Of a DNA stretch of 32,000 nt, positions 1,024 through 29,140 are shown piece by piece. The notes under the pieces are model-generated. The model searched no databases. It saw only the letters and a program-made list of their open reading frames with translations, and was not told where the DNA came from. Made by a program: the position numbers and the translations under genes. The stretch comes from Opitutales bacterium (GTDB lineage Bacteria > Verrucomicrobiota > Verrucomicrobiia > Opitutales > PNEW01): positions 390,001 through 422,000 of the forward strand of contig CBDCNV010000001.1 of the NCBI GenBank assembly GCA_965219535.1, read 5' to 3'. Position 1 is the stretch's first letter. Every line of letters begins with the position of its first letter.

Positions 1024-2601
1024 CTATGACGCGCTTGCTATCGAAACACCCACGAGGAGTATAAGTATTCCAATCAAGAAGAATGCAACGAGTGTACTCG
1101 CTTTTTTACTTTCTCTTCGCGGCCCGAAATAACTCACGAGGCAGCCGACGATAATATTCATCACCAAGCCGGTGGCGCCCACATATTGGGGGCTTAGGGG
1201 CGTTAGACCGGTGAAAATATGCCAGAAGGAAAACATGAGGCTGGCAGTAAACCCATAGATCACACCCATGAGTGCGCCTAAAGGTGTTGCAAAGGGGACA
1301 AAGAATACGAGGAAAAAGAGTCCAAAGTTTTGCGGCAACAGTAGATTGGCCAAACGCATCGTCATCTCAACAAAATTGCCCGGCATATACTTCATATACA
1401 TGCTGGCAATGATCACTACGAATCCGGCTCCGAATGTAATCCCTTTTGCACAGAGCACATGTTTCATTTCAGACTCCGGTTTTAGTCCGAAACGATCGAT
1501 GAAATCAGTCATCACCACCGCTGTGATGGAGTTTATTCCTGAGTCGAGGCTGGACATCCCGGCAGCCAGCATGGCGGCGACGACTAGACCGGCAATCCCC
1601 ATAGGCAAGTGGTTGGCAATATAGTAGGGGAAAATTTTATCAGCGTCTCTTATTAAATCCATGTCTTGTGGCAGCAGCTGCGGGTTCGCGCTGAAATAAC
1701 CCAACAAGGCAAACCCGAGTACAACTAAGACGAAGACAACGATAAAGGTGACGAGAGAATTCACACCATAGGAACGGCGAGCGTCACGAGCATCCCTCGT
1801 AGCCATGAAGCGTTGGATTGGCAATTGGTCGCCTCCAGCCATGCAAACTTTCCAGACGACTCCCGAGATGATGGCGCCTATAAGCGAGACGCGCATATGG
1901 GGATCAAAACTGAATAGAGGTTGTGTGTCCCAGGTTGACACCCAGGATGTGGGCCACCAGGAAAATCCACCGCTTTCAATAGTGATAATCAATACCGTTA
2001 TGACCGCACCGCCAGTGAGCAGACAAAACTGCGCGAGGTCGGTATAGACAACCGCGAACAAGCCGCCTAACGAAGTGTAGGTAATGGCAATAATGCCAAT
2101 TATTACGACCATAAGCGGAGTCCAACTGTCGTCGAGACCAACGATCACGGTCAATGCTACCGCGCAAAAATAAACGAGGAGTGACATCCAAACAATGCGA
2201 AGCAGGATAAACATCAATGCGCCTAACAAACGGATGCCAATACCGAGGCGAGCTTCAAGGAGTTCATAAGCGCTCGTGATGCGCTGTTTCATCAGAAAGG
2301 GGACCAGTAAATGACCGACGATGAAATAGGAAAGTGGGATAGAAAAGATCAAGCCGGTGAAAAGAATGGGGCCATGTTTAATGACTTCGCCCGGTTTGGA
2401 GAGATAGGATGCGGTACTGATAAGGGTAGCGAAAAGTGAGATCCCGATGAGGATCGGATTCATTTTACCAGTGCCAACGAAATACTCATTCGTGTTTTTC
2501 TGTTTCTTTGAGTAGTACCACCCTAGGCCGAGCACACCGACGACATAGCCCGCGATCATCACCCAATCGAGCCAGACCAAGCCGCTATCTGTATAAGACA
2601 T
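1024..2601 (-). CDS. Sodium:solute symporter (SSS) family transporter
   Basis: 525-aa ORF that is highly hydrophobic with many predicted TM segments. The N-terminus (DWVMIAGYVVGVLGLGWYYSKKQKNTNEYFVGTGKMNP) is typical of the SSS/PutP/PanF-type family. Confidence 0.8.
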   Translation of the reverse strand: MSYTDSGLVWLDWVMIAGYVVGVLGLGWYYSKKQKNTNEYFVGTGKMNPILIGISLFATLISTASYLSKPGEVIKHGPILFTGLIFSIPLSYFIVGHLLVPFLMKQRITSAYELLEARLGIGIRLLGALMFILLRIVWMSLLVYFCAVALTVIVGLDDSWTPLMVVIIGIIAITYTSLGGLFAVVYTDLAQFCLLTGGAVITVLIITIESGGFSWWPTSWVSTWDTQPLFSFDPHMRVSLIGAIISGVVWKVCMAGGDQLPIQRFMATRDARDARRSYGVNSLVTFIVVFVLVVLGFALLGYFSANPQLLPQDMDLIRDADKIFPYYIANHLPMGIAGLVVAAMLAAGMSSLDSGINSITAVVMTDFIDRFGLKPESEMKHVLCAKGITFGAGFVVIIASMYMKYMPGNFVEMTMRLANLLLPQNFGLFFLVFFVPFATPLGALMGVIYGFTASLMFSFWHIFTGLTPLSPQYVGATGLVMNIIVGCLVSYFGPRRESKKASTLVAFFLIGILILLVGVSIASAS

Positions 2602-2774
2602 TTTTGTTCAAAAAAAGAAATGAAATTAACAATTAATACAGGCATGGAAGAATTTAAACCAGAGCTAGGCAAACTAATACTATTTCGCACTATTATGAAG
2701 AATAGGTGAATCAGCTGTGTTTAGACAGCTTCTGAAGTTTGATTTGTCCTAGAGAGTATTGTATTTTAACTAAG

Positions 2775-2804
2775 TTGTTTCGATTGTAGACATTTCACTA
2801 TAAT
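2775..2804 (+). promoter_or_regulatory. Candidate sigma70-type promoter (TTGTTT-18 bp-TATAAT) only 4 nt upstream of the DUF3179 ATG
   Basis: A perfect TATAAT lies at 2799-2804 and TTGTTT at 2775-2780. There is no purine-rich RBS before the ATG at 2809, which would imply a leaderless or near-leaderless mRNA. This is motif matching only. Confidence 0.25.
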
Positions 2805-2808
2805 ACTT

Positions 2809-4524
2809 ATGTTACATCCCCCTTGTCTGAGCTGGCGTTGGTGGGCGCCGTTGCTAATCATAATTATATTTGAAACCCGTGTTTGCGCCCAAACCGTTGT
2901 TTATCAAGACTGGCGTGGCGATGACACAATGGATGTAGGATCGGGTTGGAAGCATTCGTCATGGTTTGGCTATTTTTATGACGAATCCTTTCCCTGGATA
3001 TATCACGAGACACAGGGTTGGCTCTACAGCGAGAGTGTAAGTTCAGAAAGTGTATGGTTGTGGGATCAAAATATTGGTTGGATTTGGACTAGTGATGAAT
3101 CCTATCCCTATCTATTTATTTCCGAGACGTCGGCATGGGTAACAGACCTGGGTGATGTACGGCTAACGGAGAAGGAAGAAACGGCGAAAACTCTAGACAC
3201 ACTGGTAAGCGAAAACAGTGATTCAGCTAGAGCATTAATTGATGAAATAGTAAGACATAAAGACATCCGTTATATTGCCGTATTTATCGAGTTGATGCGT
3301 GCACAGGAAGTTTTCATCCAAGTGGCCATAGACCGCACATTAATAATTGATACATTGGAAGCGTTAAGTGGTGAGAATTTTGGCAGCAATTGGGCCGCCT
3401 GGGTAGAGTGGTATGGACTAACTGACCTCGCGCCACCTTCCGGATTTACGAGTTGGAAAGGTCGATTATTATCCAATATCGATCCTGAATTTGGTGATTT
3501 TCTCAGTGATGATTTTCCCTCGCGCATACGCTCCGAGGAGATTTTATGGGGGGGTGTGCTCGTTGATGGCATCCCTCCTCTTGATAATCCGAAAAGGTTG
3601 TTGGCTGAAGCAGCAACTTACCTGGAACCCACGGACCTCGTTTTTGGGATCTCTATTAACGGTGACGCCCGCGCTTATCCATTACGTATTATGGACTGGC
3701 ACGAAATGGCCAATGAAGTCATTGGCGGCGTGCCCGTTTCTCTTGCTTACTGCACGCTCTGTGGAGCCGCTATCGCGTATGATGGCCGTGTAGCTGAAGG
3801 GATCACTTATAACTTTGGGACCTCCGGGTTTCTCTTTCGCAGCAATAAGCTGATGTACGATCGCCAAACACGAACACTCTGGAACCAGTTCACGGGGAAA
3901 CCTGTACTGGGCACGCTTGCGGGAACGGATCTGCGGCTTAGTATTTTACCTCTTGTTCTCACCGACTGGGCCTCATGGCAGGAACAGCACCCGCATACAA
4001 CGGTTCTCGATATCGACACGGGTTATAGTCGACCCTATGCCAATGGAAGAGCTTACGGATCATACTTTGGCTCGCCTGATACATTATTTCCAGTTGCGCA
4101 AAGAAGAGATCTGTTAGACACCAAGGATCAAATTTACGCCCTTGAAATTGAGGGGATTCCAAAGGCGTATCCCATCGAAACCCTTACCGAGGAACAAGTG
4201 GTCAACGATATCATCGGAGATACTCCTGTTGTTCTAGTCGCACAAAGCGGTATTGCTACAGTTGACTTCGTTGAAACTCCATTTCCGTTGACCTATTCAG
4301 CGGGTGCGGAAGTGCGCGCTTACAACAGGGGTGAACTTAATTTTAACCCAGGATTGAATGCGGGCAGCGTTATTGATTCCGAAGGTCAGGTTTGGAGCAT
4401 AACTGAAGAAGCATTGACCAGTGAAGAGGGGATAAAAGTGCCACGAATCAATGGCCATCTAGCCTACTGGTTTGGCTGGTACGCTTTTTTCCCCAACACC
4501 CTTGTGTATGGAGTAGGAGAGTGA
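2809..4524 (+). CDS. Secreted DUF3179-domain protein with Trp-rich N-terminal extension
   Basis: 571-aa ORF with an N-terminal hydrophobic signal-like segment (WWAPLLIIIIFETRVCAQ). The C-terminal two-thirds match the DUF3179 pattern: DGIPPLDNPK...GDARAYPLRIMDWHEMANEVIGGVPVSLAYCTLCGAAIAYD...FGTSGFLFRSNKLMYDRQTRTLWNQFTGKPV. Confidence 0.75.
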   Translation: MLHPPCLSWRWWAPLLIIIIFETRVCAQTVVYQDWRGDDTMDVGSGWKHSSWFGYFYDESFPWIYHETQGWLYSESVSSESVWLWDQNIGWIWTSDESYPYLFISETSAWVTDLGDVRLTEKEETAKTLDTLVSENSDSARALIDEIVRHKDIRYIAVFIELMRAQEVFIQVAIDRTLIIDTLEALSGENFGSNWAAWVEWYGLTDLAPPSGFTSWKGRLLSNIDPEFGDFLSDDFPSRIRSEEILWGGVLVDGIPPLDNPKRLLAEAATYLEPTDLVFGISINGDARAYPLRIMDWHEMANEVIGGVPVSLAYCTLCGAAIAYDGRVAEGITYNFGTSGFLFRSNKLMYDRQTRTLWNQFTGKPVLGTLAGTDLRLSILPLVLTDWASWQEQHPHTTVLDIDTGYSRPYANGRAYGSYFGSPDTLFPVAQRRDLLDTKDQIYALEIEGIPKAYPIETLTEEQVVNDIIGDTPVVLVAQSGIATVDFVETPFPLTYSAGAEVRAYNRGELNFNPGLNAGSVIDSEGQVWSITEEALTSEEGIKVPRINGHLAYWFGWYAFFPNTLVYGVGE

Positions 4525-8125: not shown

Positions 8126-9028
8126 TCAGCCGCTCTTTTCAATGGAAGGAGAGGGTTCAATGGGGTTGATCGGTATATCGAGCAGGTCCACCCCAAAAAT
8201 GATCGTGCCGTTAAATATCTTCCCAGCTTCAGACAAAACGAGCTCACGGGCACCAGGCTGATCTAATTGTTCTGAAATATGCACCAGAACTAAAATTTTG
8301 ACCCCCGCTTCTTGAGCAGTGCGGGCCGCATCCAAATGACCGGAACAGAAGTCGGTCAGTCGAGAATCGTTGTTAGCGCTGTTGAAGAAATGACACATGT
8401 GCAGCAGCACATCAGCGTTTTCAGCCAGTTTAGTCAGGCTGTCAATGGGCGCTGTATCACCTCCAAAGACGATGGCGTGGGATGAGGTGTTTAATCGATA
8501 GGCTAAACAGGTCAAGTAAGGTTGGACGTGAATAACTTCAGCAACTTCGAGACTCCAGTTATCGCGTTCAAGTAAAGTCCCTGAAGCTACCTCGGTCACG
8601 ACGGGGGAGGGCCGAACGCGCGGTAATTCGCCTCCACGCTGCTCATAGATGAAGTGACTGGTTGGATGTTGCGTTCGAGCAGTCAGGTCGGGATCAAAAG
8701 CTCCACCCTTGTTAAAAAGCGCGCTTGTTATCTGTTGCGTGTTTGCCGGACCGATGACGTCTAATTCAGGAATCTGGCCGGCTCCCTGATCCCAGCGATT
8801 TAAAACAAGATAGCTGTAGTCTACGCAGTGATCATAATGCAAATGGGTCAGGAAAAGACTGGTAATACGAGTAGGACTGATGCCTTTCTTAATCAATCGT
8901 CGCACGCAACCCGGACCACAATCAAAGAGCAGCATCTCGTCGTCAAGGGTGACTAAATAACTGGAACCGGCTCTTTGGATCAGCGGTGTTGGTGTGCCGG
9001 TGCCAAGGAGTGTTAGATTGAGCGACAT
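8126..9028 (-). CDS. MBL-fold metallo-hydrolase (RNase Z / beta-lactamase superfamily)
   Basis: 300-aa ORF. The start (LTLLGTGTPTP...GSSYLV...LLFDCGPG) and the metal-binding motif LTHLHYDHCVD are typical of the MBL fold. Confidence 0.8.
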   Translation of the reverse strand: MSLNLTLLGTGTPTPLIQRAGSSYLVTLDDEMLLFDCGPGCVRRLIKKGISPTRITSLFLTHLHYDHCVDYSYLVLNRWDQGAGQIPELDVIGPANTQQITSALFNKGGAFDPDLTARTQHPTSHFIYEQRGGELPRVRPSPVVTEVASGTLLERDNWSLEVAEVIHVQPYLTCLAYRLNTSSHAIVFGGDTAPIDSLTKLAENADVLLHMCHFFNSANNDSRLTDFCSGHLDAARTAQEAGVKILVLVHISEQLDQPGARELVLSEAGKIFNGTIIFGVDLLDIPINPIEPSPSIEKSG

Positions 9029-9054
9029 CTATCGATTTTCGATTGCCGAATGAA

Positions 9055-9093
9055 GGATGTCGAGCTTTGCTCTCGGTAGCCGAATGTCGATTG
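9055..9093 (+). repeat. Short GGATGTCGAGCTT(T/C)GC(T/C)CTCGG(G)TAG(C/G)CGA... repeat, copy A
   Basis: GGATGTCGAGCTTTGCTCTCGGTAGCCGAATGTCGATTG matches the copies at 28861-28898 and 29103-29140, which directly follow the two tRNA-Glu genes. This copy lies between the tRNA-Asn-linked array and the MBL gene start. Confidence 0.75.
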
Positions 9094-9162
9094 AATTTAC
9101 GTTCTGTTACGGCACCTGCAGGCCTGTCATGAGCGGATAGGCCCGATTAAGCCGGGGCCGAA

Positions 9163-9275
9163 TGGCTGCCCGGGCAGGATGGACGCTGCGCTTGTGTCGT
9201 CGCTGTCGCTCCTCGGAACGAACCTGCGACAAAGTGGTTAATCCCGACATATATATGTCGGGACTCCACCGCTGA
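9163..9275 (-). other. Rearranged tRNA-Asn 3' fragment (psi-1): tRNA positions from the D-loop to CCA with two insertions and no 5' acceptor strand
   Basis: The minus strand reads ..TCAGCGGTAGAG[TCCCGACATATATATGTCGGGA]TTAACCACTTTGTCGCAGGTTCG[TTCCGAGGAGCGACAGCGACGACACAAGCGCAGCGTCC]ATCCTGCCCGGGCAGCCA. Unbracketed parts are identical to the tRNA-Asn at 9957-10020, except for one substitution in this copy (C at 9267 versus T in psi-2). Confidence 0.85.
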
Positions 9276-9276
9276 A

Positions 9277-9558
9277 TTATATTTCAAACAACTTTCGAAT
9301 GGCTTTTGCAGATTTCCAATTCTTAATTTGTTTTTCCCGTCTCATGGCTGAAGATCTGTCAGACTGAATTTCCCACCAGACAAGAGTCCATGGACCGTTC
9401 TTATGGGTATACTTGCCTAAGTGACTCCTCCCGGACGAATCGGAGTGTTCATAATAGCGTCGTATAAGATTATCAGTATGACCGATGTAGAAGCGTCCCT
9501 TTTCGTTTTTCAATATGTAAACGAAATACTCCACAAGATAAACAATACCCCCCAACAA
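9277..9558 (-). CDS. GIY-YIG nuclease family protein (small COG2827/URI-domain type), copy 1
   Basis: 93-aa ORF reading ...YFVYILKNEKGRFYIGHTDNLIRRYYEH...MRREKQIKNWKSAKAIRKL. It carries the GIY/YIG motifs, the conserved R, and the C-terminal RE..IK.W region of the family. The track start is TTG. An in-frame GTG at codon 9 (giving MEYFVYIL...) is an equally plausible start. Confidence 0.85.
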   Translation of the reverse strand: MLGGIVYLVEYFVYILKNEKGRFYIGHTDNLIRRYYEHSDSSGRSHLGKYTHKNGPWTLVWWEIQSDRSSAMRREKQIKNWKSAKAIRKLFEI

Positions 9559-9559
9559 T

Positions 9560-9672
9560 TGGCTGCCCGGGCAGGATGGACGCTGCGCTTGTGTCGTCGC
9601 TGTCGCTCCTCGGAACGAACCTGCGACAAAGTGGTTAATCCCGACATATATATGTCGGGACTCTACCGCTGA
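9560..9672 (-). other. Rearranged tRNA-Asn 3' fragment (psi-2), same architecture as psi-1
   Basis: 113 nt carrying the same two insertions as 9163-9275. The one difference I saw is T at 9664 versus C at 9267. It begins 1 nt after the stop of GIY-YIG copy 2 and ends 1 nt before the ORF-track start of copy 1. Confidence 0.85.
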
Positions 9673-9673
9673 A

Positions 9674-9955
9674 TTATATTTCGATCAACTTTCGAATGGC
9701 TTTTGCAGATTTCCAATTCTTAATTTGTTTTTCCCGTCTCATGGCTGAAGATCTGTCAGACTGAATTTCCCACCAGACAAGAGTCCATGGACCGTTCTTA
9801 TGGGTATACTTGCCTAAGTGACTCCTCCCGGACGAATCGGAGTGTTCATAATAGCGTCGTATAAGATTATCAGTATGACCGATGTAGAAGCGTCCCTTTT
9901 CGTTTTTCAATATGTAAACGAAATACTCCACAAGATAAACAATACCCCCCAACAC
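9674..9955 (-). CDS. GIY-YIG nuclease family protein, copy 2
   Basis: The protein is identical to copy 1 apart from one residue near the C-terminus (RKLIEI versus RKLFEI). The track start (GTG, complement of 9953-9955) lies 1 nt from the CCA end of tRNA-Asn. Confidence 0.85.
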   Translation of the reverse strand: MLGGIVYLVEYFVYILKNEKGRFYIGHTDNLIRRYYEHSDSSGRSHLGKYTHKNGPWTLVWWEIQSDRSSAMRREKQIKNWKSAKAIRKLIEI

Positions 9956-9956
9956 T

Positions 9957-10031
9957 TGGCTGCCCGGGCAGGATTCGAACCTGCGACAAAGTGGTTAACA
10001 GCCACCTGCTCTACCGCTGAGCTACCAGGCA
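9957..10031 (-). tRNA. tRNA-Asn (anticodon GTT)
   Basis: Hand-folded 75-nt cloverleaf on the minus strand: TGCCTGG TA GCTC AGCGGTA GAGC A GGTGG CTGTTAA CCACT TTGTC GCAGG TTCGAAT CCTGC CCGGGCA G CCA. The acceptor stem has one G-U pair and the CCA is encoded. Confidence 0.9.
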
Positions 10032-10051
10032 TGGGTCGCGAAAAACGATCG

Positions 10052-10081
10052 GAATTACCATCGAAATTGCTGAATTGTCAA
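10052..10081 (-). promoter_or_regulatory. Candidate promoter for tRNA-Asn and the downstream array
   Basis: The minus strand reads TTGACA (10081-10076)-18 nt-TAATTC (10057-10052), with a TG one base upstream of the -10 (extended -10-like). It lies about 20 nt upstream of the tRNA 5' end. Motif-based only. Confidence 0.4.
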
Positions 10082-10164
10082 TCTTAAGGGTAAATACGGT
10101 AAGTTTAGAATGATTGTAAGCCCGTTCTAAGACAATTTAAAAATCCGCCCCCTATTAAATTAAG

Positions 10165-10290
10165 CTTCGTCTTCGTCTGCGTCCTCTTTTACCTTTTCCC
10201 CACCATCTTTCTGTAAACGAATGACTATTTATAAATTATTACTTTTTCATTATTTCGAAAATATCCACAGGGACGAAGACGAAGACGAAG
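10165..10290. repeat. Long inverted repeat with (CTTCGT)n arms, element A
   Basis: Left arm CTTCGTCTTCGTCTGCGTCC (10165-10184) pairs 19/20 with right arm GGGACGAAGACGAAGACGAAG (10270-10290), around about 85 nt of AT-rich sequence. TAAATTAAGCTTC occurs at both 10156-10168 and 10330-10342. Confidence 0.8.
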
Positions 10291-10379
10291 ATATACTGCC
10301 CGTCCCATGCCACTCTTTTAAGCCTCATGTAAATTAAGCTTCCTGTATTTGAGATTTATTGTTAATCGATTCAGTTAGG

Positions 10380-11558
10380 ATGAAAATAACAAAAATTGAA
10401 TCAATCGTTTGCAATGCGCGTATGCGTAACTGGATTTTCGTTAAGGTTTTGACCGATCAACCCGGCCTTTTCGGTTGGGGTGAAGCCACCTTGGAATGGC
10501 ACACGCATGGCGTCATCGGCGCGATTAAAGATCTTTCAACTCTGCTTATCGGAGAAGATCCCCGACGAATCGAACATCTCTGGCAAATGATATACCGTCA
10601 GCATTTCTGGCATGGAAATGGCGCTGTTCGAGGCACAGCAATCAGCGGGATCGATCTCGCGTTATGGGATATCTTAGGAAAACTTAAAGATACCCCTTGT
10701 CACCAGTTGTGGGGTGGACCCGTGCGCGACTATGTCCGCCTTTATTGCCATCTGGGGGGCGGAAAAATGGAAGACTTTTATGAGACAAAACCCCATGACG
10801 CGAAACGTTTCGCCGAGATGGCGCAAGAAGTCGTAGAGGCGGGTTTTACCGCTTTTAAATCAATGGCGGTTCCGGAAACGATGCCCATTGAAGGTCTCAA
10901 GCCCATTCGTTATGCAGAGGCTTGTGTAGGGGCCATGCGCGAGGCGGTGGGCGAGAACATTGACATCATGGTTGACTGCCACGCCCGACCTTCACCACGC
11001 ATGGGTATGCTCTTTGCCAAGGCCCTGGAACCTTACGGGCTGTATTTTTTTGAGGAACCCTGTTGGCCTGAAGTCTACGAGGACATTGGCGCGATCCAAA
11101 GAGCTGTTTCAACCCCAATCGCTACGGGTGAACGGATGATTGGATTACACGCTTTTCGCGATTTATTGGAAGCTCGCGCCTGCAGCATTATTCAACCGGA
11201 TATCACCCACTGTGGAGGTCTGAGTGAAGCGCGTCGAATCGCGAGCCTGGCTGAAGCTTACCGCGTGGCTATGGCACCCCATAATCCACAGGGGCCCGTC
11301 AGCACTGCGGCTTCCCTTGAGCTGGGTTTTGCTACTCCAAGTTATATTATTTGTGAAGCTGTTCATCAGGATGTGCCCTGGCGCGAGGATATTGTTACTT
11401 GGGGATTTGAAATTGAAAAAGAGGGCCGGATCGCGAGGCCGAACACCAAGCCCGGGCTCGGAGTTGAGATCGATGAAGATGAAGTAGCTAAACATCCTTA
11501 TAAGCAGGAATTACTTCAGCGTTCTTTCTACGCAGACGGTGCCGTTGGCGATTGGTAA
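10380..11558 (+). CDS. Enolase-superfamily dehydratase (mandelate racemase/muconate lactonizing family, D-galactonate-dehydratase-like)
   Basis: [10 protein letters not shown]...[20 protein letters not shown]...[14 protein letters not shown]...DCHARPSP...FFEEP...ATGER...[11 protein letters not shown]...APHNP...[10 protein letters not shown] is collinear with DgoD-type enzymes. I chose the ATG at 10380 over the track's TTG at 10359. Confidence 0.8.
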
Positions 11559-14100: not shown

Positions 14101-15150
14101 ATGCAAATTCCTCTCGCCATTACCTTCCCACAGATCGTTCTCGTTGTCGCGGGAATCTTTCTGCTGGTTGTATTTATTCTAATCATATCCTTCTTTAACG
14201 TGTGGTTGAAGGCGTGGTTATCGGGCGCGCCAGTCAGCATTGCCACCCTGATCGCCATGCGTTTGCGCGGAGTCCCTTACTCTTTAATTGTCGATGCGCG
14301 CATCACCGCAGCCAAAGCGGGTGTTGATATACCGAGTGACGAATTTGAACAGCACTATCTTGCCGGCGGCGACGTCATTCAAACAACCCAAGCGCTTATA
14401 AATTCAATGAAAGCCGGTATTACCATAGACTGGAATCGTGCTTGTGCTATTGATCTCGCCACGAAAGGAAGCGGTAAGTCAGTCATGGAAGCGGTGCGCA
14501 CTTCAATTAATCCTAAGGTTATTGACTGCCCCGCTCCCGAATCCGGACGTGCTACAATTGATGGCGTAGCCAAAGATGGCATCCAGGTAAAAGCGCGAGC
14601 GCGGGTAACGGTGCGAAGTGACCTCGATCATTATGTTGGCAGCGCACAGGAAGAGACAATAATTGCCCGGGTTGGCGAAGGTATTGTTACGACGATTGGG
14701 TCGGCTGATACTTATAAATACGTCCTGGAAAACCCCGATTCGATTTCGAAAAACGTCCTTCAGCGTGGTTTGGATACCGGGACAGCTTTTGAAATTCTAT
14801 CCATCGACATTGCGGATATAGACGTCGGGCAGAATATTGGGGCACAACTGCAGGAAGCCCAGGCTGAGGCGAATAAAAAAGTAGCTCAGGCTCAGGCTGA
14901 AATCCGCCGCGCGGCCGCGGTTGCCGTTGAACAGGAGATGAGTGCCAGAGTTGAAGAAATGCAGGCTAAGCTCGTCGAAGCGCAAGCACAGGTGCCAATG
15001 GCCATGGCTGAAGCCCTTCGCAGCGGTAATTTGGGTGTAATGGATTATTACCGTATGATGAATATCCAGTCAGATACCGAGATGCGCTCTTCCATCGGCC
15101 AGGAAGGTGAAGGCGGAGATGGCGGAGATGGCGGAGATGAAACAACCTAA
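14101..15150 (+). CDS. floA: Flotillin-like protein FloA (SPFH domain, UPF0365/YqfA family)
   Basis: 349-aa ORF with an N-terminal TM segment, then [25 protein letters not shown]...AKAGVDI...[10 protein letters not shown], which closely matches the pattern of Bacillus FloA/YqfA. The position downstream of NfeD genes is the conserved arrangement. Confidence 0.85.
15112..15138 (+). repeat. In-frame 9-bp tandem repeat (GGCGGAGAT)x3 at the floA 3' end
   Basis: Three perfect copies encode GGD-GGD-GGD in the acidic C-terminal tail. Confidence 0.9.
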
Positions 15151-28773: not shown

Positions 28774-28851
28774 CTCCCGTTCGTCTAGCTCGGTCCAGGA
28801 CACAGGGTTTTCATCCCTGCAACAGGGGTTCAAATCCCCTACGGGAGGCCA
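28774..28851 (+). tRNA. tRNA-Glu (anticodon TTC)
   Basis: Hand fold: CTCCCGT TC GTCT AGCTCGGTCCA GGAC A CAGGG TTTTCAT CCCTG CAAC AGGGG TTCAAAT CCCCT ACGGGAG G CCA. It is collinear with E. coli tRNA-Glu. By my fold the first pair is C1:G72. Confidence 0.85.
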
Positions 28852-28860
28852 TTCGATGGT

Positions 28861-28898
28861 GGATGTCGAGCTTCGCTCTCGGTAGCCGATTGGCGATG
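28861..28898 (+). repeat. GGATGTCGAGCTTCGC... repeat, copy B, followed by two degenerate units to ~28975
   Basis: GGATGTCGAGCTTCGCTCTCGGTAGCCGATTGGCGATG begins 9 nt after the tRNA-Glu(TTC) CCA. Degenerate relatives GGATGTCCATCCTTCGCACGAGGCTATGGATG and GGCGGGCTTCGCCCTCAGTAGCAGATTG follow. Confidence 0.75.
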
Positions 28899-29014: not shown

Positions 29015-29092
29015 GCCCCGTTCGTCTAGCCGGGCCAAGGACGCAGGGTTCTCATCCCTGAAACAGGGGTTCAAATCCCCTACGGGGTGCCA
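29015..29092 (+). tRNA. tRNA-Glu (anticodon CTC)
   Basis: Hand fold: GCCCCGT TC GTCT AGCCGGGCCAA GGAC G CAGGG TTCTCAT CCCTG AAAC AGGGG TTCAAAT CCCCT ACGGGGT G CCA. By my fold the first pair is G1-U72. It lies 241 bp downstream of the TTC isoacceptor. Confidence 0.85.
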
Positions 29093-29102
29093 TTTGATGG
29101 TG

Positions 29103-29140
29103 GGATGTCGAGCTTCGCCCTCGGGTAGGCGATTGGGGTG
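29103..29140 (+). repeat. GGATGTCGAGCTTCGC... repeat, copy C
   Basis: GGATGTCGAGCTTCGCCCTCGGGTAGGCGATTGGGGTG sits downstream of tRNA-Glu(CTC) in the same CCATT(C/T)GATGGTGG context as copy B. Confidence 0.75.

Follow-up and report, generated by a model that had tools for sequence, protein, structure and literature searches.

What is the gene for a small GIY-YIG nuclease doing between a tRNA-Asn gene and damaged copies of that same tRNA, and why is the arrangement doubled? This question is raised by the window (the whole stretch of 32,000 nucleotides analysed here), in which an intact tRNA-Asn(GTT) gene is followed on the minus strand by two 397-bp units, each composed of a GIY-YIG open reading frame (ORF) and a partial tRNA copy (psi) (Table 1). 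The first-pass annotation had already proposed this order, and ARAGORN, Rfam and Pfam agree with it. It had also placed an 18-mer at three sites 397 bp apart and counted four differences between the units. The 18-mer (TGGCTGCCCGGGCAGGAT) indeed occurs exactly at 9163, 9560 and 9957 (spacing 397 + 397), and a base-by-base comparison of 9163-9559 with 9560-9956 returned the same four differences and no more (9267/9664, 9286/9683, 9288/9685 and 9558/9955). Tandem Repeats Finder reports the array as a 397-bp period with 2.0 copies and a 99% match (9163-9974), and the two encoded proteins are distinguished by a single residue (I in copy 1, F in copy 2). The flanking genes encode an MBL-fold hydrolase and an enolase-superfamily enzyme; within the unit, the GIY-YIG ORF is the only one matched to a family.

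Table 1. Coordinates of the tRNA-Asn gene, its putative control region and the two repeat units, in the order of the minus strand.
Feature	Position	Strand	Evidence
Candidate tRNA-Asn promoter (TTGACA, 16-nt spacer, GGTAAT)	10052..10081	-	read from sequence
Intact tRNA-Asn, anticodon GTT, CCA encoded	9957..10031	-	ARAGORN; Rfam RF00005, 68.9 bits, full length
Spacer from CCA end to likely start codon, 25 nt (AGTGTTGGGGGGTATTGTTTATCTT)	9932..9956	-	homologue start positions
GIY-YIG ORF copy 1, 85 aa from likely start GTG 9931 (maximal 93 aa from GTG 9955)	9674..9931	-	Pfam, PDB match, AlphaFold model
psi-tRNA-Asn 1, five segments	9560..9672	-	alignment to tRNA-Asn
psi 1, D-loop fragment	9661-9672	-	
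psi 1, hairpin TCCCGACATATATATGTCGGGA, in place of tRNA positions 25-34	9639-9660	-	
psi 1, tRNA positions 35-57	9616-9638	-	
psi 1, 38-nt insert, in place of A58	9578-9615	-	
psi 1, tRNA 3' end ATCCTGCCCGGGCAGCCA	9560-9577	-	
GIY-YIG ORF copy 2, 85 aa from likely start GTG 9534 (maximal ORF from TTG 9558)	9277..9534	-	
psi-tRNA-Asn 2, five segments	9163..9275	-	alignment to tRNA-Asn
psi 2, D-loop fragment, one mismatch to tRNA (9267)	9264-9275	-	
psi 2, hairpin	9242-9263	-	
psi 2, tRNA positions 35-57	9219-9241	-	
psi 2, 38-nt insert	9181-9218	-	
psi 2, tRNA 3' end	9163-9180	-	

The functional tRNA copy is the one at the promoter-proximal end of the array. The element listed upstream of it is the presumed promoter of the tRNA-Asn transcription unit; it was missed by a consensus promoter scan because its -10 hexamer has no A at position 2. 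A promoter and terminator scan of 9000-10400 detected none inside the units. The earlier view that the ORFs have no room for promoters of their own holds for the window but not for several relatives, in which a stem-loop followed by a T run (a rho-independent-type terminator, as read by eye) lies between tRNA and ORF. The candidate promoter region is present in duplicate in a related strain, L001. Rfam scans (E <= 1) of the region and of a related locus yielded tRNA only, with no intron, ribozyme or known RNA family; weak miRNA-type matches at 10162-10293 correspond to an unrelated hairpin.

The psi copies had been described as a rearranged 3' fragment of the tRNA. Their tRNA origin stands, whereas the loose rearrangement does not: each consists of ordered blocks of 12, 23 and 18 nt, identical or nearly identical to the tRNA (only the D-loop block of psi 2 deviates, by one base), joined by a hairpin and an insert. 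The hairpin, TCCCGAC-ATATATAT-GTCGGGA, is perfect, spans 22 nt and substitutes for 10 nt of the tRNA, while the insert splits the T loop. The 5' acceptor strand is missing, and both the anticodon arm and the T arm are disrupted. Across 32 kb, two matches to the hairpin pattern were found where 0.03 would be expected, each of them within a psi copy. The RNA fold of psi is much more stable than that of shuffled controls (z = -4.0). Folded as RNA or as DNA, however, psi forms a long hairpin and no cloverleaf; given this and the missing or disrupted parts, the proposal that it serves as a tRNA-like processing signal of the RNase P/Z type, which would release the nuclease mRNA, is not supported.

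Both ORFs (9674-9955 and 9277-9558 in their maximal extent) match the Pfam GIY-YIG profile PF01541 (E = 4e-16), with a score of 59.4 bits where the curated threshold is 22.6 and with positions 2-74 of the 78 in the profile covered. An alignment of 38 sequences revealed the invariant residues Y6, Y16, G18, R26, H30, E67 and K71. The closest proteins of known structure found by phmmer were 1zg2 (BH0048, UPF0213; E = 2e-7) and 1ywl (EF2693; E = 3e-3). An AlphaFold model (pLDDT 84) submitted to Foldseek retrieved 1zg2 first, followed by the Slx1 structures 6seh, 4xm5 and 7cq2, then 1ywl (rank 8) and At-HIGLE (7wme). Judged by sequence and predicted fold, the protein is a minimal UPF0213/Slx1-like nuclease of about 85 aa, in which only the catalytic domain is present, with no DNA-binding module and no second Pfam domain. 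An exact look-up of the 93-aa ORF product found none on record, and the PADLOC defence families and PHROGs gave no match.

According to the first-pass annotation, each ORF fills the entire gap between tRNA sequences and begins 1 nt after the CCA end without an ATG codon. The non-ATG start is retained. Homologous proteins, however, open with M-x-x-VYIL, i.e. start two or three residues before the VYIL motif, so that the in-frame GTG at codon 9 (9931 or 9534) is the likely start; from there the product would be 85 aa long, preceded by a 25-nt spacer whose G run may act as a ribosome-binding site. Gene calls P0001 and P0021 carry spurious N-terminal extensions that run through tRNA sequence. The nuclease is, as substitution ratios indicate, under purifying selection: dN/dS was 0.05-0.25 in all pairs of orthologues or old tandem copies with estimable dS, and 0.6-0.9 in very recent duplicates, which carry few substitutions. 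The family is a large one, its profile collecting 27,850 clusters (50% identity) at E <= 0.001 and 6,107 at E <= 1e-10.

A neighbourhood survey, of the kind suggested by the first-pass annotation, covered the best 80 homologous loci from species genomes. A tRNA gene on the same strand abuts the ORF at 64 of them (tRNA-Asn upstream at 49, tRNA-Pro downstream at 12, and one case each of downstream tRNA-Asn, tRNA-Thr and tRNA-Val). A further eight loci are cut by a contig end; the ORF lies within 1 kb of the locus start at 15/80, and at eight of those the upstream tRNA is cut off. Among the eight loci lacking an intact tRNA, seven still have tRNA-derived sequence adjoining the ORF, with a tRNA 3'-end remnant or psi just before it in six and a hairpin psi after it in seven. 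A hairpin of the TCCC..GGGA type was found near the ORF at 71/80 loci, and two to five ORF copies or fragments at 15/80. Wherever an adjacent tRNA was found, the ORF was on its strand, in one of two layouts: (i) tRNA, ORF, hairpin psi, or (ii) the mirror order of hairpin psi, ORF, tRNA, which also occurs at a tRNA-Asn gene (L050). Arrays of psi without an ORF exist upstream at some loci.

The linkage, which the first-pass annotation had described for tRNA-Asn, is not specific to that tRNA: tRNA-Pro, -Thr, -Val, -His, -Cys, -Met and -Arg are used as well. The same grammar was observed in all six distant homologues sampled (L084, L085 and L088-L091, from Bacteroidota, Ignavibacteriae, Patescibacteria and Opitutaceae), where the neighbouring tRNA is a different one (His, Val, Cys, Met or Arg) and the hairpin is particular to the lineage. 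In total, the architecture spans at least nine named phylum-level groups and at least eight tRNA species. Each genome contains only about one or two such loci, always at the cognate tRNA.

The psi copies of these loci follow the local tRNA closely. Of the 49 downstream copies, 20 are identical to it from position 35 to the 3' end (39-42 nt), and 38 match it over at least 14 nt directly after the hairpin, whose 3' junction is constant, between tRNA positions 34 and 35. The stem covaries (position 6: AT 39, GC 8, CG 5; position 7: CG 38, TA 8, AT 2, GC 2), while the loop varies freely (2-9 nt), also between lineages with saturated synonymous sites. Hairpins are found at two or three tRNA positions (anticodon arm, T arm, D arm), and at some loci a second hairpin splits the T arm and leaves tRNA-derived blocks of just 12-23 nt. 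The ORF and psi overlap, the stop codon often coming from tRNA-derived sequence. Two simple readings of the hairpin were considered and rejected. As a terminator or mRNA 3' stabiliser (in its main role) it would be misplaced, since loci with the mirror order have it in the 5' leader and no T run follows it. As for a collapsed acceptor-stem microhelix, planctomycete tRNA-Asn acceptor strands (TCCCCGA / TCGGGGA) do resemble it, but we take this likeness to be a coincidence, because the same hairpin accompanies unrelated acceptor stems.

Several observations bear on turnover. Strain L001, whose flanks are 97-99.8% identical to those of the window, has a single unit and lacks an intact tRNA. In arrays of two to five units the distal copies are decayed, and tandem arrays are also present in complete chromosomes (L039 in OY763926.1 and L046 in OY759675.1). 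In a rough neighbour-joining tree (about 80 aa, without support values, and with taxa that binning of metagenome-assembled genomes may have mislabelled) tandem copies group by locus, a Thr-linked member is nested inside the Asn clade with the same hairpin, and members of different phyla group together. The grouping by locus fits unequal crossover between tRNA 3'-end homologies, already suggested in the first-pass annotation, as the likely proximate cause of the duplication. In viral contigs only two distant relatives were detected, neither of them near a tRNA, which makes carriage by phages improbable. Searches of JGI metagenomes gave no match to an empty site (in which an intact T loop would run straight into the downstream flank) or to the window's own hairpin.

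We propose that the 397-bp unit belongs to a class of selfish cassettes that is widespread and, it appears, undescribed. Each cassette comprises a gene for a GIY-YIG protein of about 85 aa and one or more partial copies of the neighbouring tRNA gene, in which a lineage-specific perfect hairpin replaces or interrupts a stem-loop region. The first-pass annotation had suspected a selfish GIY-YIG element that targets the tRNA gene and leaves its psi copies disrupted; the comparative data make this the best-supported reading and extend it far beyond the window. The ORF would be transcribed by read-through from the tRNA promoter, and the predicted nuclease would nick or break tRNA-derived DNA or DNA beside it. 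Its target may be the intact anticodon arm, in which case psi would be immune because the hairpin replaces that arm; alternatively, it may be the hairpin or branched structure itself, as expected of a structure-specific enzyme of the Slx1 type. Recombinational repair between the intact tRNA gene and psi might then copy the cassette into naive tRNA genes, enlarge or shrink the array (here to two units) and keep psi homogenised with the tRNA, one intact copy of which would always be kept because it is essential. We give about even chances to this complete scheme, i.e. a nuclease cassette residing in a tRNA unit and maintained and amplified by recombination of the intact tRNA with hairpin-marked partial copies. 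Several facts weigh against it. The protein, at 85 aa, has no DNA-binding domain, and the proteins nearest to it in structure recognise structures, not sequences; the nuclease would also attack the intact tRNA gene beside which it resides; simple immunity does not account for a replacement that is always a perfect hairpin with a conserved stem; and the blocks of 12-23 nt are short as recombination arms where the T arm is split. Furthermore, the scans of JGI metagenomes produced no pair of empty and filled sites, and the tree mostly tracks taxonomy, so that inheritance may be mostly vertical.

In an alternative reading, the hairpins themselves, on single-stranded or extruded DNA, would be the cognate recognition or cleavage sites of the nuclease, so that cuts there rather than in the intact tRNA would drive movement and rearrangement, with the tRNA flanks providing only landing homology. 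The hairpins would then act as the subterminal ones do for IS200/IS605 transposases or in REP/RAYT systems. Each subfamily has its own perfect hairpin, the fixed 3' junction and the occurrence at two or three different tRNA positions point the same way, a covarying stem with a free loop suits a folded single strand better than a duplex operator, and the fold is that of the Slx1 family, which cuts branched or stem-loop DNA. Nevertheless, we consider this alternative rather unlikely: cutting of its own copy alone leaves the spread to naive sites unexplained, confinement to about one or two cognate loci per genome is unlike transposons, and stems of 7 bp are on the short side for extruding a cruciform from a duplex. 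A variant in which the hairpin and the tRNA-identical stretch act as a nucleic-acid guide, making the locus a minimal guide-directed GIY-YIG homing system, is in our opinion very improbable. The hairpin would be the protein-specific handle and the adjoining 9-40 nt would pair with the opened tRNA gene, to be cut between positions 34 and 35; psi would be spared, since the handle lies at its flank.

The module might also work at the RNA level, the nuclease acting on tRNA or mRNA and psi being a decoy or antitoxin that resists cleavage, much as in type III toxin-antitoxin systems, or a processing or stabilising element of the nuclease mRNA. The shared strand of ORF and tRNA, the overlap of ORF and psi, the presence of one psi per ORF in every unit and the stability of the psi RNA would suit this view. 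It is nonetheless distinctly improbable, as psi, without the 5' acceptor strand and often without the T arm, could be neither an L-shaped mimic nor a substrate of RNase P/Z, and as decayed arrays, ORF-less upstream psi arrays and strain polymorphism would be left unexplained; in addition, PADLOC gave no defence-family match, and characterised GIY-YIG enzymes are, to our knowledge, DNA nucleases. In its favour, a bacterial Slx1-like domain fused to a TrmH-type tRNA methyltransferase has been reported, for which an RNA role was suggested (Dunin-Horkawicz et al. 2006, PMC1564403); that paper does not mention linkage to tRNA genes or hairpin pseudo-tRNAs. Two less elaborate explanations concern the doubling. 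An assembly artefact concealing a single unit is conceivable, considering that L001 has one unit and that short reads can mis-assemble repeats of this size, yet it is most unlikely, since four bases distinguish the copies, one codon being changed, and since many other assemblies, complete chromosomes among them, contain arrays of two to five units. That a housekeeping UPF0213 gene came by chance to lie beside tRNA-Asn and was doubled by unequal crossover at the tRNA 3' end is scarcely credible: crossover between shared blocks of 18-23 nt would yield exactly this product, and the units are 99% identical, but the idea is already contradicted by the survey, with the same grammar shared by 64-72 of the 80 independent loci and by 6/6 distant homologues, and by a hairpin that is conserved and covaries.

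If the selfish-cassette reading is correct, a compact element (about 400 bp) exploits essential and universally conserved tRNA genes with neither integrase nor ribozyme. No biology has so far been assigned to the very large family of minimal GIY-YIG proteins of the UPF0213/COG2827 type, and the location of many of them inside tRNA units with hairpin-marked partial copies (in Verrucomicrobiota, Planctomycetota, Bacteroidota, Patescibacteria and other phyla) offers a concrete and testable role. It also accounts for a share of the pseudo-tRNA fragments and tandem repeats seen next to tRNA genes, for contig breaks at such loci and for the extended gene calls P0001 and P0021. Should the nuclease turn out to be directed by a hairpin or a guide, its very small size would make it attractive as a programmable enzyme. 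The first-pass annotation knew of no GIY-YIG cargo in such repeats, and our full-text literature searches (outside subscription-only papers) likewise found no published description of the linkage between nuclease and tRNA.

Among known systems, genomic islands and prophages at tRNA genes share the succession of intact tRNA, inserted DNA and a directly repeated 3' portion of the tRNA, and the anticodon-loop and T-loop sublocations recall known integrase crossover sites. Such islands are integrated by tyrosine integrases, while the unit described here has about 400 bp, a single 85-aa ORF and no tyrosine or serine recombinase; its repeat is interrupted by a hairpin, and mirror layouts and ORF-less upstream psi arrays occur. 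Group I introns with GIY-YIG homing endonuclease genes in tRNA anticodon loops have in common with it a GIY-YIG ORF and a junction in the anticodon loop, but Rfam detects no ribozyme here, and in place of a tRNA divided between two exons there is an intact copy with a partial one, lacking the 5' part, next to it. Unlike in IS200/IS605 elements, there is no HUH protein, and the hairpins are embedded in tRNA-derived sequence. The stand-alone UPF0213/Slx1-like proteins (BH0048, 1zg2; EF2693, 1ywl) belong to the same family by sequence and fold and are likewise minimal single-domain GIY-YIG proteins; they have hitherto been regarded as vertically inherited repair or housekeeping nucleases of unknown function, whereas the window's members are linked to tRNA.

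The repeats downstream of E. coli tyrT (rtT/Tpr; 178-bp units with about 19 nt of the tRNA 3' end and a small ORF) had been named as the known analogue. The analogy is a formal one: both systems consist of tandem units after a tRNA gene, each ending in the tRNA 3' terminus and containing a small ORF, and both presumably arose by unequal recombination. The tyrT units, as described, contain neither a nuclease gene nor a hairpin replacement, in contrast to the GIY-YIG gene and extended, hairpin-disrupted tRNA copy of the window, and we know of no counterpart of them across phyla.

The phage protein SegB provides a precedent. In T4 and T6, as in the window, a free-standing GIY-YIG gene lies amid tRNA genes; with the proposed cassette it shares a selfish character and nuclease-dependent tandem (segmental) amplification that takes in a tRNA gene. 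SegB is a homing endonuclease that drives segmental amplification of the tRNA genes among which it resides, without isotype preference (PMC13096335), whereas each cassette subfamily is bound to one tRNA. SegB has about 220 aa with a DNA-binding region and its loci lack hairpin-disrupted partial tRNA copies; the window protein is a chromosomal, 85-aa catalytic domain of the Slx1/UPF0213 lineage, and its family is almost absent from viral contigs. Of the traits of homing endonucleases, the DNA-binding module attached to the catalytic domain is missing, but the gene does lie beside its putative conserved target (64/80 loci) and is accompanied by partial copies in which the anticodon arm has been replaced.

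The GIY-YIG array at tRNA-Asn follows a conserved three-part grammar: an intact tRNA gene, a nuclease ORF and hairpin-marked partial copies of the tRNA (psi). The tRNA, repeat, 18-mer and Pfam calls confirmed the first-pass observation of a tRNA-Asn-linked tandem array, in which each 397-bp unit holds one psi, a partial copy of tRNA-Asn, beside an ORF with a strong PF01541 match (E = 4e-16). A base-by-base comparison of both units recovered exactly the four differing positions that had been listed, and it is true of the window units that the ORFs have no room for a promoter of their own. Within the window only the Asn gene bears the cassette, since neither a GIY-YIG ORF nor a hairpin psi was found near the two tRNA-Glu genes (TTC and CTC, 163 nt apart).

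Positions of the array and of other features of the window
Feature	Position	Strand	Remark
Metallo-beta-lactamase-fold protein, 300 aa	8126-9028	minus	neighbour of the array
29-nt motif GGATGTCGAGCTTYGCYCTCGGTAGCCGA	9055-9083; 28861-28889	+	exact copies
Degenerate third copy of the motif	near 29095-29125		
Whole array: intact tRNA-Asn, then two 397-bp tandem units	9163-10031	minus	Tandem Repeats Finder
18-mer, complement of the tRNA-Asn 3' end	9163; 9560; 9957		
Intact tRNA-Asn(GTT)	10031-9957	minus	ARAGORN, Rfam
13-nt direct repeat TAAATTAAGCTTC	10156; 10330		brackets the inverted repeat (10156-10342)
Inverted-repeat arm CTTCGTCTTCGTCTGCGTCC	10165-10184		upstream of the tRNA-Asn promoter region
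Inverted-repeat arm GGACGAAGACGAAGACGAAG	10271-10290		
9-nt tandem repeat GGCGGAGAT	15112-15139		perfect, 3.1 copies
tRNA-Glu(TTC)	28774-28851	+	
tRNA-Glu(CTC)	29015-29092	+	

Other features were observed nearby. The long inverted repeat, whose arms are separated by 86 AT-rich nt, looks like a small MITE-like insertion; its Rfam matches are weak plant-miRNA hairpins only, and it recurs, altered, at 1720-1860 of the homologous locus L001. The 29-nt motif (zero exact copies expected) lies just past the array end and 10 nt after tRNA-Glu(TTC), and a sequence resembling it comes after tRNA-Glu(CTC); the motif might be a trailer or terminator that these tRNA genes have in common. The metallo-beta-lactamase-fold protein, whose L001 counterpart is recorded with PF23023 (Anti-Pycsar Apyc1) besides Lactamase_B, is probably a cellular cyclic-nucleotide phosphodiesterase-like enzyme.

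The decisive evidence for the cassette is comparative. In the first three homologue contexts tRNA-Asn stands immediately 5' of the ORF; the Phycisphaerae locus L003 has the order tRNA-Asn, 1 nt, GIY-YIG ORF, psi, second ORF and decayed psi, with the hairpin TCCCGAC-TGC-GTCGGGA at the same position as in the window psi. A neighbourhood survey of the 80 best homologous loci from species genomes revealed a same-strand tRNA adjoining the ORF in 64: tRNA-Asn(GTT) 6-130 nt upstream (49 loci), tRNA-Pro(CGG) downstream (12), and tRNA-Asn downstream, tRNA-Thr upstream and tRNA-Val upstream (one each). Eight loci were cut by a contig end, and in the remaining eight no intact tRNA was called; tRNA-derived sequence adjoins the ORF in seven of these eight, as a 3'-end remnant or psi just 5' of it in six and as a hairpin psi 3' of it in seven. 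Wherever an adjacent tRNA was found, the ORF and psi lie on its strand. A perfect TCCC...GGGA-type hairpin flanks the ORF in 71/80 loci, and 15/80 contain two to five ORF copies or fragments, the distal ones often truncated. The hosts are chiefly Verrucomicrobiota and Planctomycetota, with a minority of Acidobacteriota, Desulfobulbaceae, Nitrospirae, Gemmatimonadales, Armatimonadota and Anaerolineales.

Alignment with tRNA-Asn resolved the window psi into five segments in precise order: the 12-nt D-loop block TCAGCGGTAGAG; a perfect 22-nt hairpin, TCCCGAC-ATATATAT-GTCGGGA, substituting 10 nt (CAGGTGGCTG) of the tRNA, a stretch that starts with the last D-stem base, takes in the 5' half of the anticodon stem and ends in the loop at wobble base 34; 23 nt identical to positions 35-57; a 38-nt insert substituting A58 of the T loop; and the last 18 nt including CCA. 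The 5' acceptor strand is missing, and folding gives an extended hairpin and no cloverleaf. The hairpin pattern is confined to the psi copies within the 32-kb window (0.03 expected). In many psi copies of relatives the T arm houses another hairpin from this family, at the site that the T-loop insert takes up in the window.

Among 49 downstream psi copies at tRNA-Asn loci, position 35 always lies directly 3' of the hairpin; 20 match the local tRNA without a difference from there to the 3' end (39-42 nt), and 38 do so for at least 14 nt. Psi thus tracks the local tRNA and evolves in concert with it. The 5' junction of the hairpin falls at position 24 (42 cases) or 28 (24 cases), and many loci carry, upstream of the intact tRNA, ORF-less tandem units of ~95 nt (tRNA 1-24, hairpin, 35-48 and leader). 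Comparison of 57 non-identical hairpins from the anticodon site gave AT (39), GC (8), CG (5) and a mismatch (4) at stem position 6, and CG (38), TA (8), AT (2), GC (2) and a mismatch (2) at position 7; positions 1-5 were fixed by the search pattern, so that their invariance is no evidence. Even lineages with synonymous-site saturation in their ORFs have TCCCGAC/GTCGGGA stems in common, with differing loops. Judged from these comparisons, the hairpin is under selection as a structure, and a loop length that varies from 2 to 9 nt speaks in favour of a folded single strand and against a duplex operator.

The pattern is wider than tRNA-Asn, which supports and generalises the first-pass interpretation. 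In the Pro clade the order is mirrored (psi 5' part, ORF, leader/promoter, intact tRNA-Pro), psi consisting of positions 1-26, the mini-hairpin TCCCTTAGGGA in place of the whole anticodon arm, and a further 13 nt. The mirrored order also occurs at a tRNA-Asn gene (L050), with the tRNA promoter region duplicated 5' of the psi-ORF. Distant homologues (38-54% identity) adjoin tRNA-His (L085, hairpin TTCTGCTGG/CCAGCAGAA at positions 27-34) and tRNA-Val and tRNA-Cys (L084). All four contexts from a second protein search, at tRNA-Met (Flavobacteriaceae), tRNA-Cys (Ignavibacteriae), tRNA-Val (Patescibacteria) and tRNA-Arg (Bacteroidales), have a psi 5' part before the ORF, and its hairpin is particular to the lineage, e.g. 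CCTGCC..GGCAGG (D arm) or GTCGCC-TTA-GGCGAC (anticodon arm). In a subfamily from Bacteroidota, Ignavibacteriae and Patescibacteria (L088-L091, L084), the ORF extends 10-23 nt into the intact downstream tRNA and stops at its U8-A9-G10 (TAG) or a D-loop TAG/TAA. Maturation of the tRNA by RNase P would therefore leave the nuclease mRNA without its stop codon, and expression might be switched in this way.

The likely start of the window ORFs is the GTG at codon 9 (9931 and 9534; 85 aa), because homologues begin M-x-x-VYIL; this in-frame GTG had been named as one option in the first-pass annotation, whose 1-nt gap after CCA gives way to a 25-nt spacer. Residues Y6, Y16, G18, R26, H30, E67 and K71 are invariant in the family alignment. 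The nearest solved proteins by sequence are UPF0213 BH0048 and EF2693, and the AlphaFold model (pLDDT 84) resembles BH0048, At-HIGLE and, from the structure-specific endonuclease Slx1-Slx4, the Slx1 nuclease domain. By these closest sequences and model matches the protein, which has no DNA-binding domain, falls in the "Slx1-like" lineage of minimal, stand-alone bacterial GIY-YIG proteins described by Dunin-Horkawicz et al. 2006 (PMC1564403), outside the I-TevI/Seg lineage. No PADLOC or PHROG family matched it. The family profile recovered 27,850 clusters (50% identity) at E <= 0.001 and 6,107 at E <= 1e-10. Wherever dS was estimable, dN/dS was 0.05-0.25 for orthologue pairs and old tandem pairs alike (0.13-0.14 at dS 0.9 in L033), very recent duplicates alone being uninformative; the genes are functional and under purifying selection. 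Many Asn-type proteins end in ...GRVPxxRD*, the translation of GGTAGAG-TCCCGAC...CGGGA-TTAA. Gene callers often add spurious N-terminal extensions translated through the upstream tRNA, e.g. ...AVNRLVVGSNPTSGA... (P0001, P0021, P0202, P0203 and many profile matches), or fuse two tandem units into one ~210-aa protein with two GIY-YIG domains, an artefact diagnostic of the tRNA-ORF architecture.

In a rough neighbour-joining tree (~80 aa, no support values), tandem copies group by locus, which indicates local amplification. The Pro clade stands apart; the Thr-linked member sits inside the Asn clade, shares its hairpin and seems to have switched target to a tRNA whose loop/3'-stem sequence is similar. 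The tree largely matches taxonomy, apart from Acidobacteriota inside Verrucomicrobia and a cluster of Desulfobulbaceae, Nitrospirae, Gemmatimonadales and one deltaproteobacterium; inheritance would therefore be mostly vertical with some transfer, MAG mis-binning being a caveat. Array expansion and decay are seen across loci. The L001 strain, with flanks 97.4-99.8% identical to the window, has a single unit and no intact tRNA-Asn; in place of the tRNA's 5' 57 nt stands ACGCTCAAGCGCAACCATCC, a short remnant recognisable as a diverged end of the T-loop insert. The strain's tRNA-Asn promoter region is duplicated, and a ~1-kb insert (2007-3006) with only short broken ORFs, which looks like a degraded insertion sequence, separates the copies. 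Such differences despite near-identical flanks mean that the locus is polymorphic on a short time-scale.

We give an even chance to the explanation of the array as a selfish recombination cassette within the tRNA transcription unit. The nuclease would be expressed at a low level from the tRNA promoter; in some relatives, inspection by eye places a rho-independent-type terminator sequence in the gap from tRNA to ORF, so that read-through there would be leaky. Once the nuclease had damaged tRNA-derived DNA, the intact gene and psi would serve as partners for repair, by recombination or synthesis-dependent annealing. Shared blocks annealing out of register would yield tRNA-ORF-psi-ORF-psi, exactly the window structure, and repair from a donor chromosome would place the cassette at a naive tRNA gene. 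Because of the hairpins, the direct repeat formed by tRNA and psi is unbroken for only 12, 23 and 18 nt at a time, and the cassette should be harder to delete as a result.

What the nuclease would cut can be modelled in two ways. Its target might be the intact anticodon arm, psi being immune because that arm is replaced; however, the protein has no DNA-binding domain, and mere immunity does not need a conserved hairpin. Alternatively, it might recognise the hairpin or a branched structure, which is consistent with its Slx1-like fold but leaves spread unexplained by self-cutting. A weaker reading places psi at the RNA level, as a decoy or processing signal, yet psi cannot attain a tRNA shape and the DNA dynamics would remain unexplained.

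The cassette lacks at least one hallmark of each of three known classes: integrase islands, group I introns and IS200/IS605 elements. Searches of the full-text literature, a scope outside which most subscription papers fall, found no account of a linkage of UPF0213/GIY-YIG genes to tRNA genes and hairpin-disrupted copies of them. We rate the cassette as an apparently undescribed form of nuclease-driven selfish element at a conserved gene; the hairpin-plus-tRNA-match module could, with low probability, set it apart as a category of its own. The analogy with the E. coli tyrT repeats, drawn in the first-pass annotation, holds as a formal likeness and does not extend to closer kinship. The nearest functional analogue is the phage protein SegB, a GIY-YIG homing endonuclease located among tRNA genes, whose segmental amplification it drives (PMC13096335). 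Unlike the window nuclease, SegB is larger, phage-borne and of a different lineage, and is not accompanied by hairpin pseudo-tRNAs.
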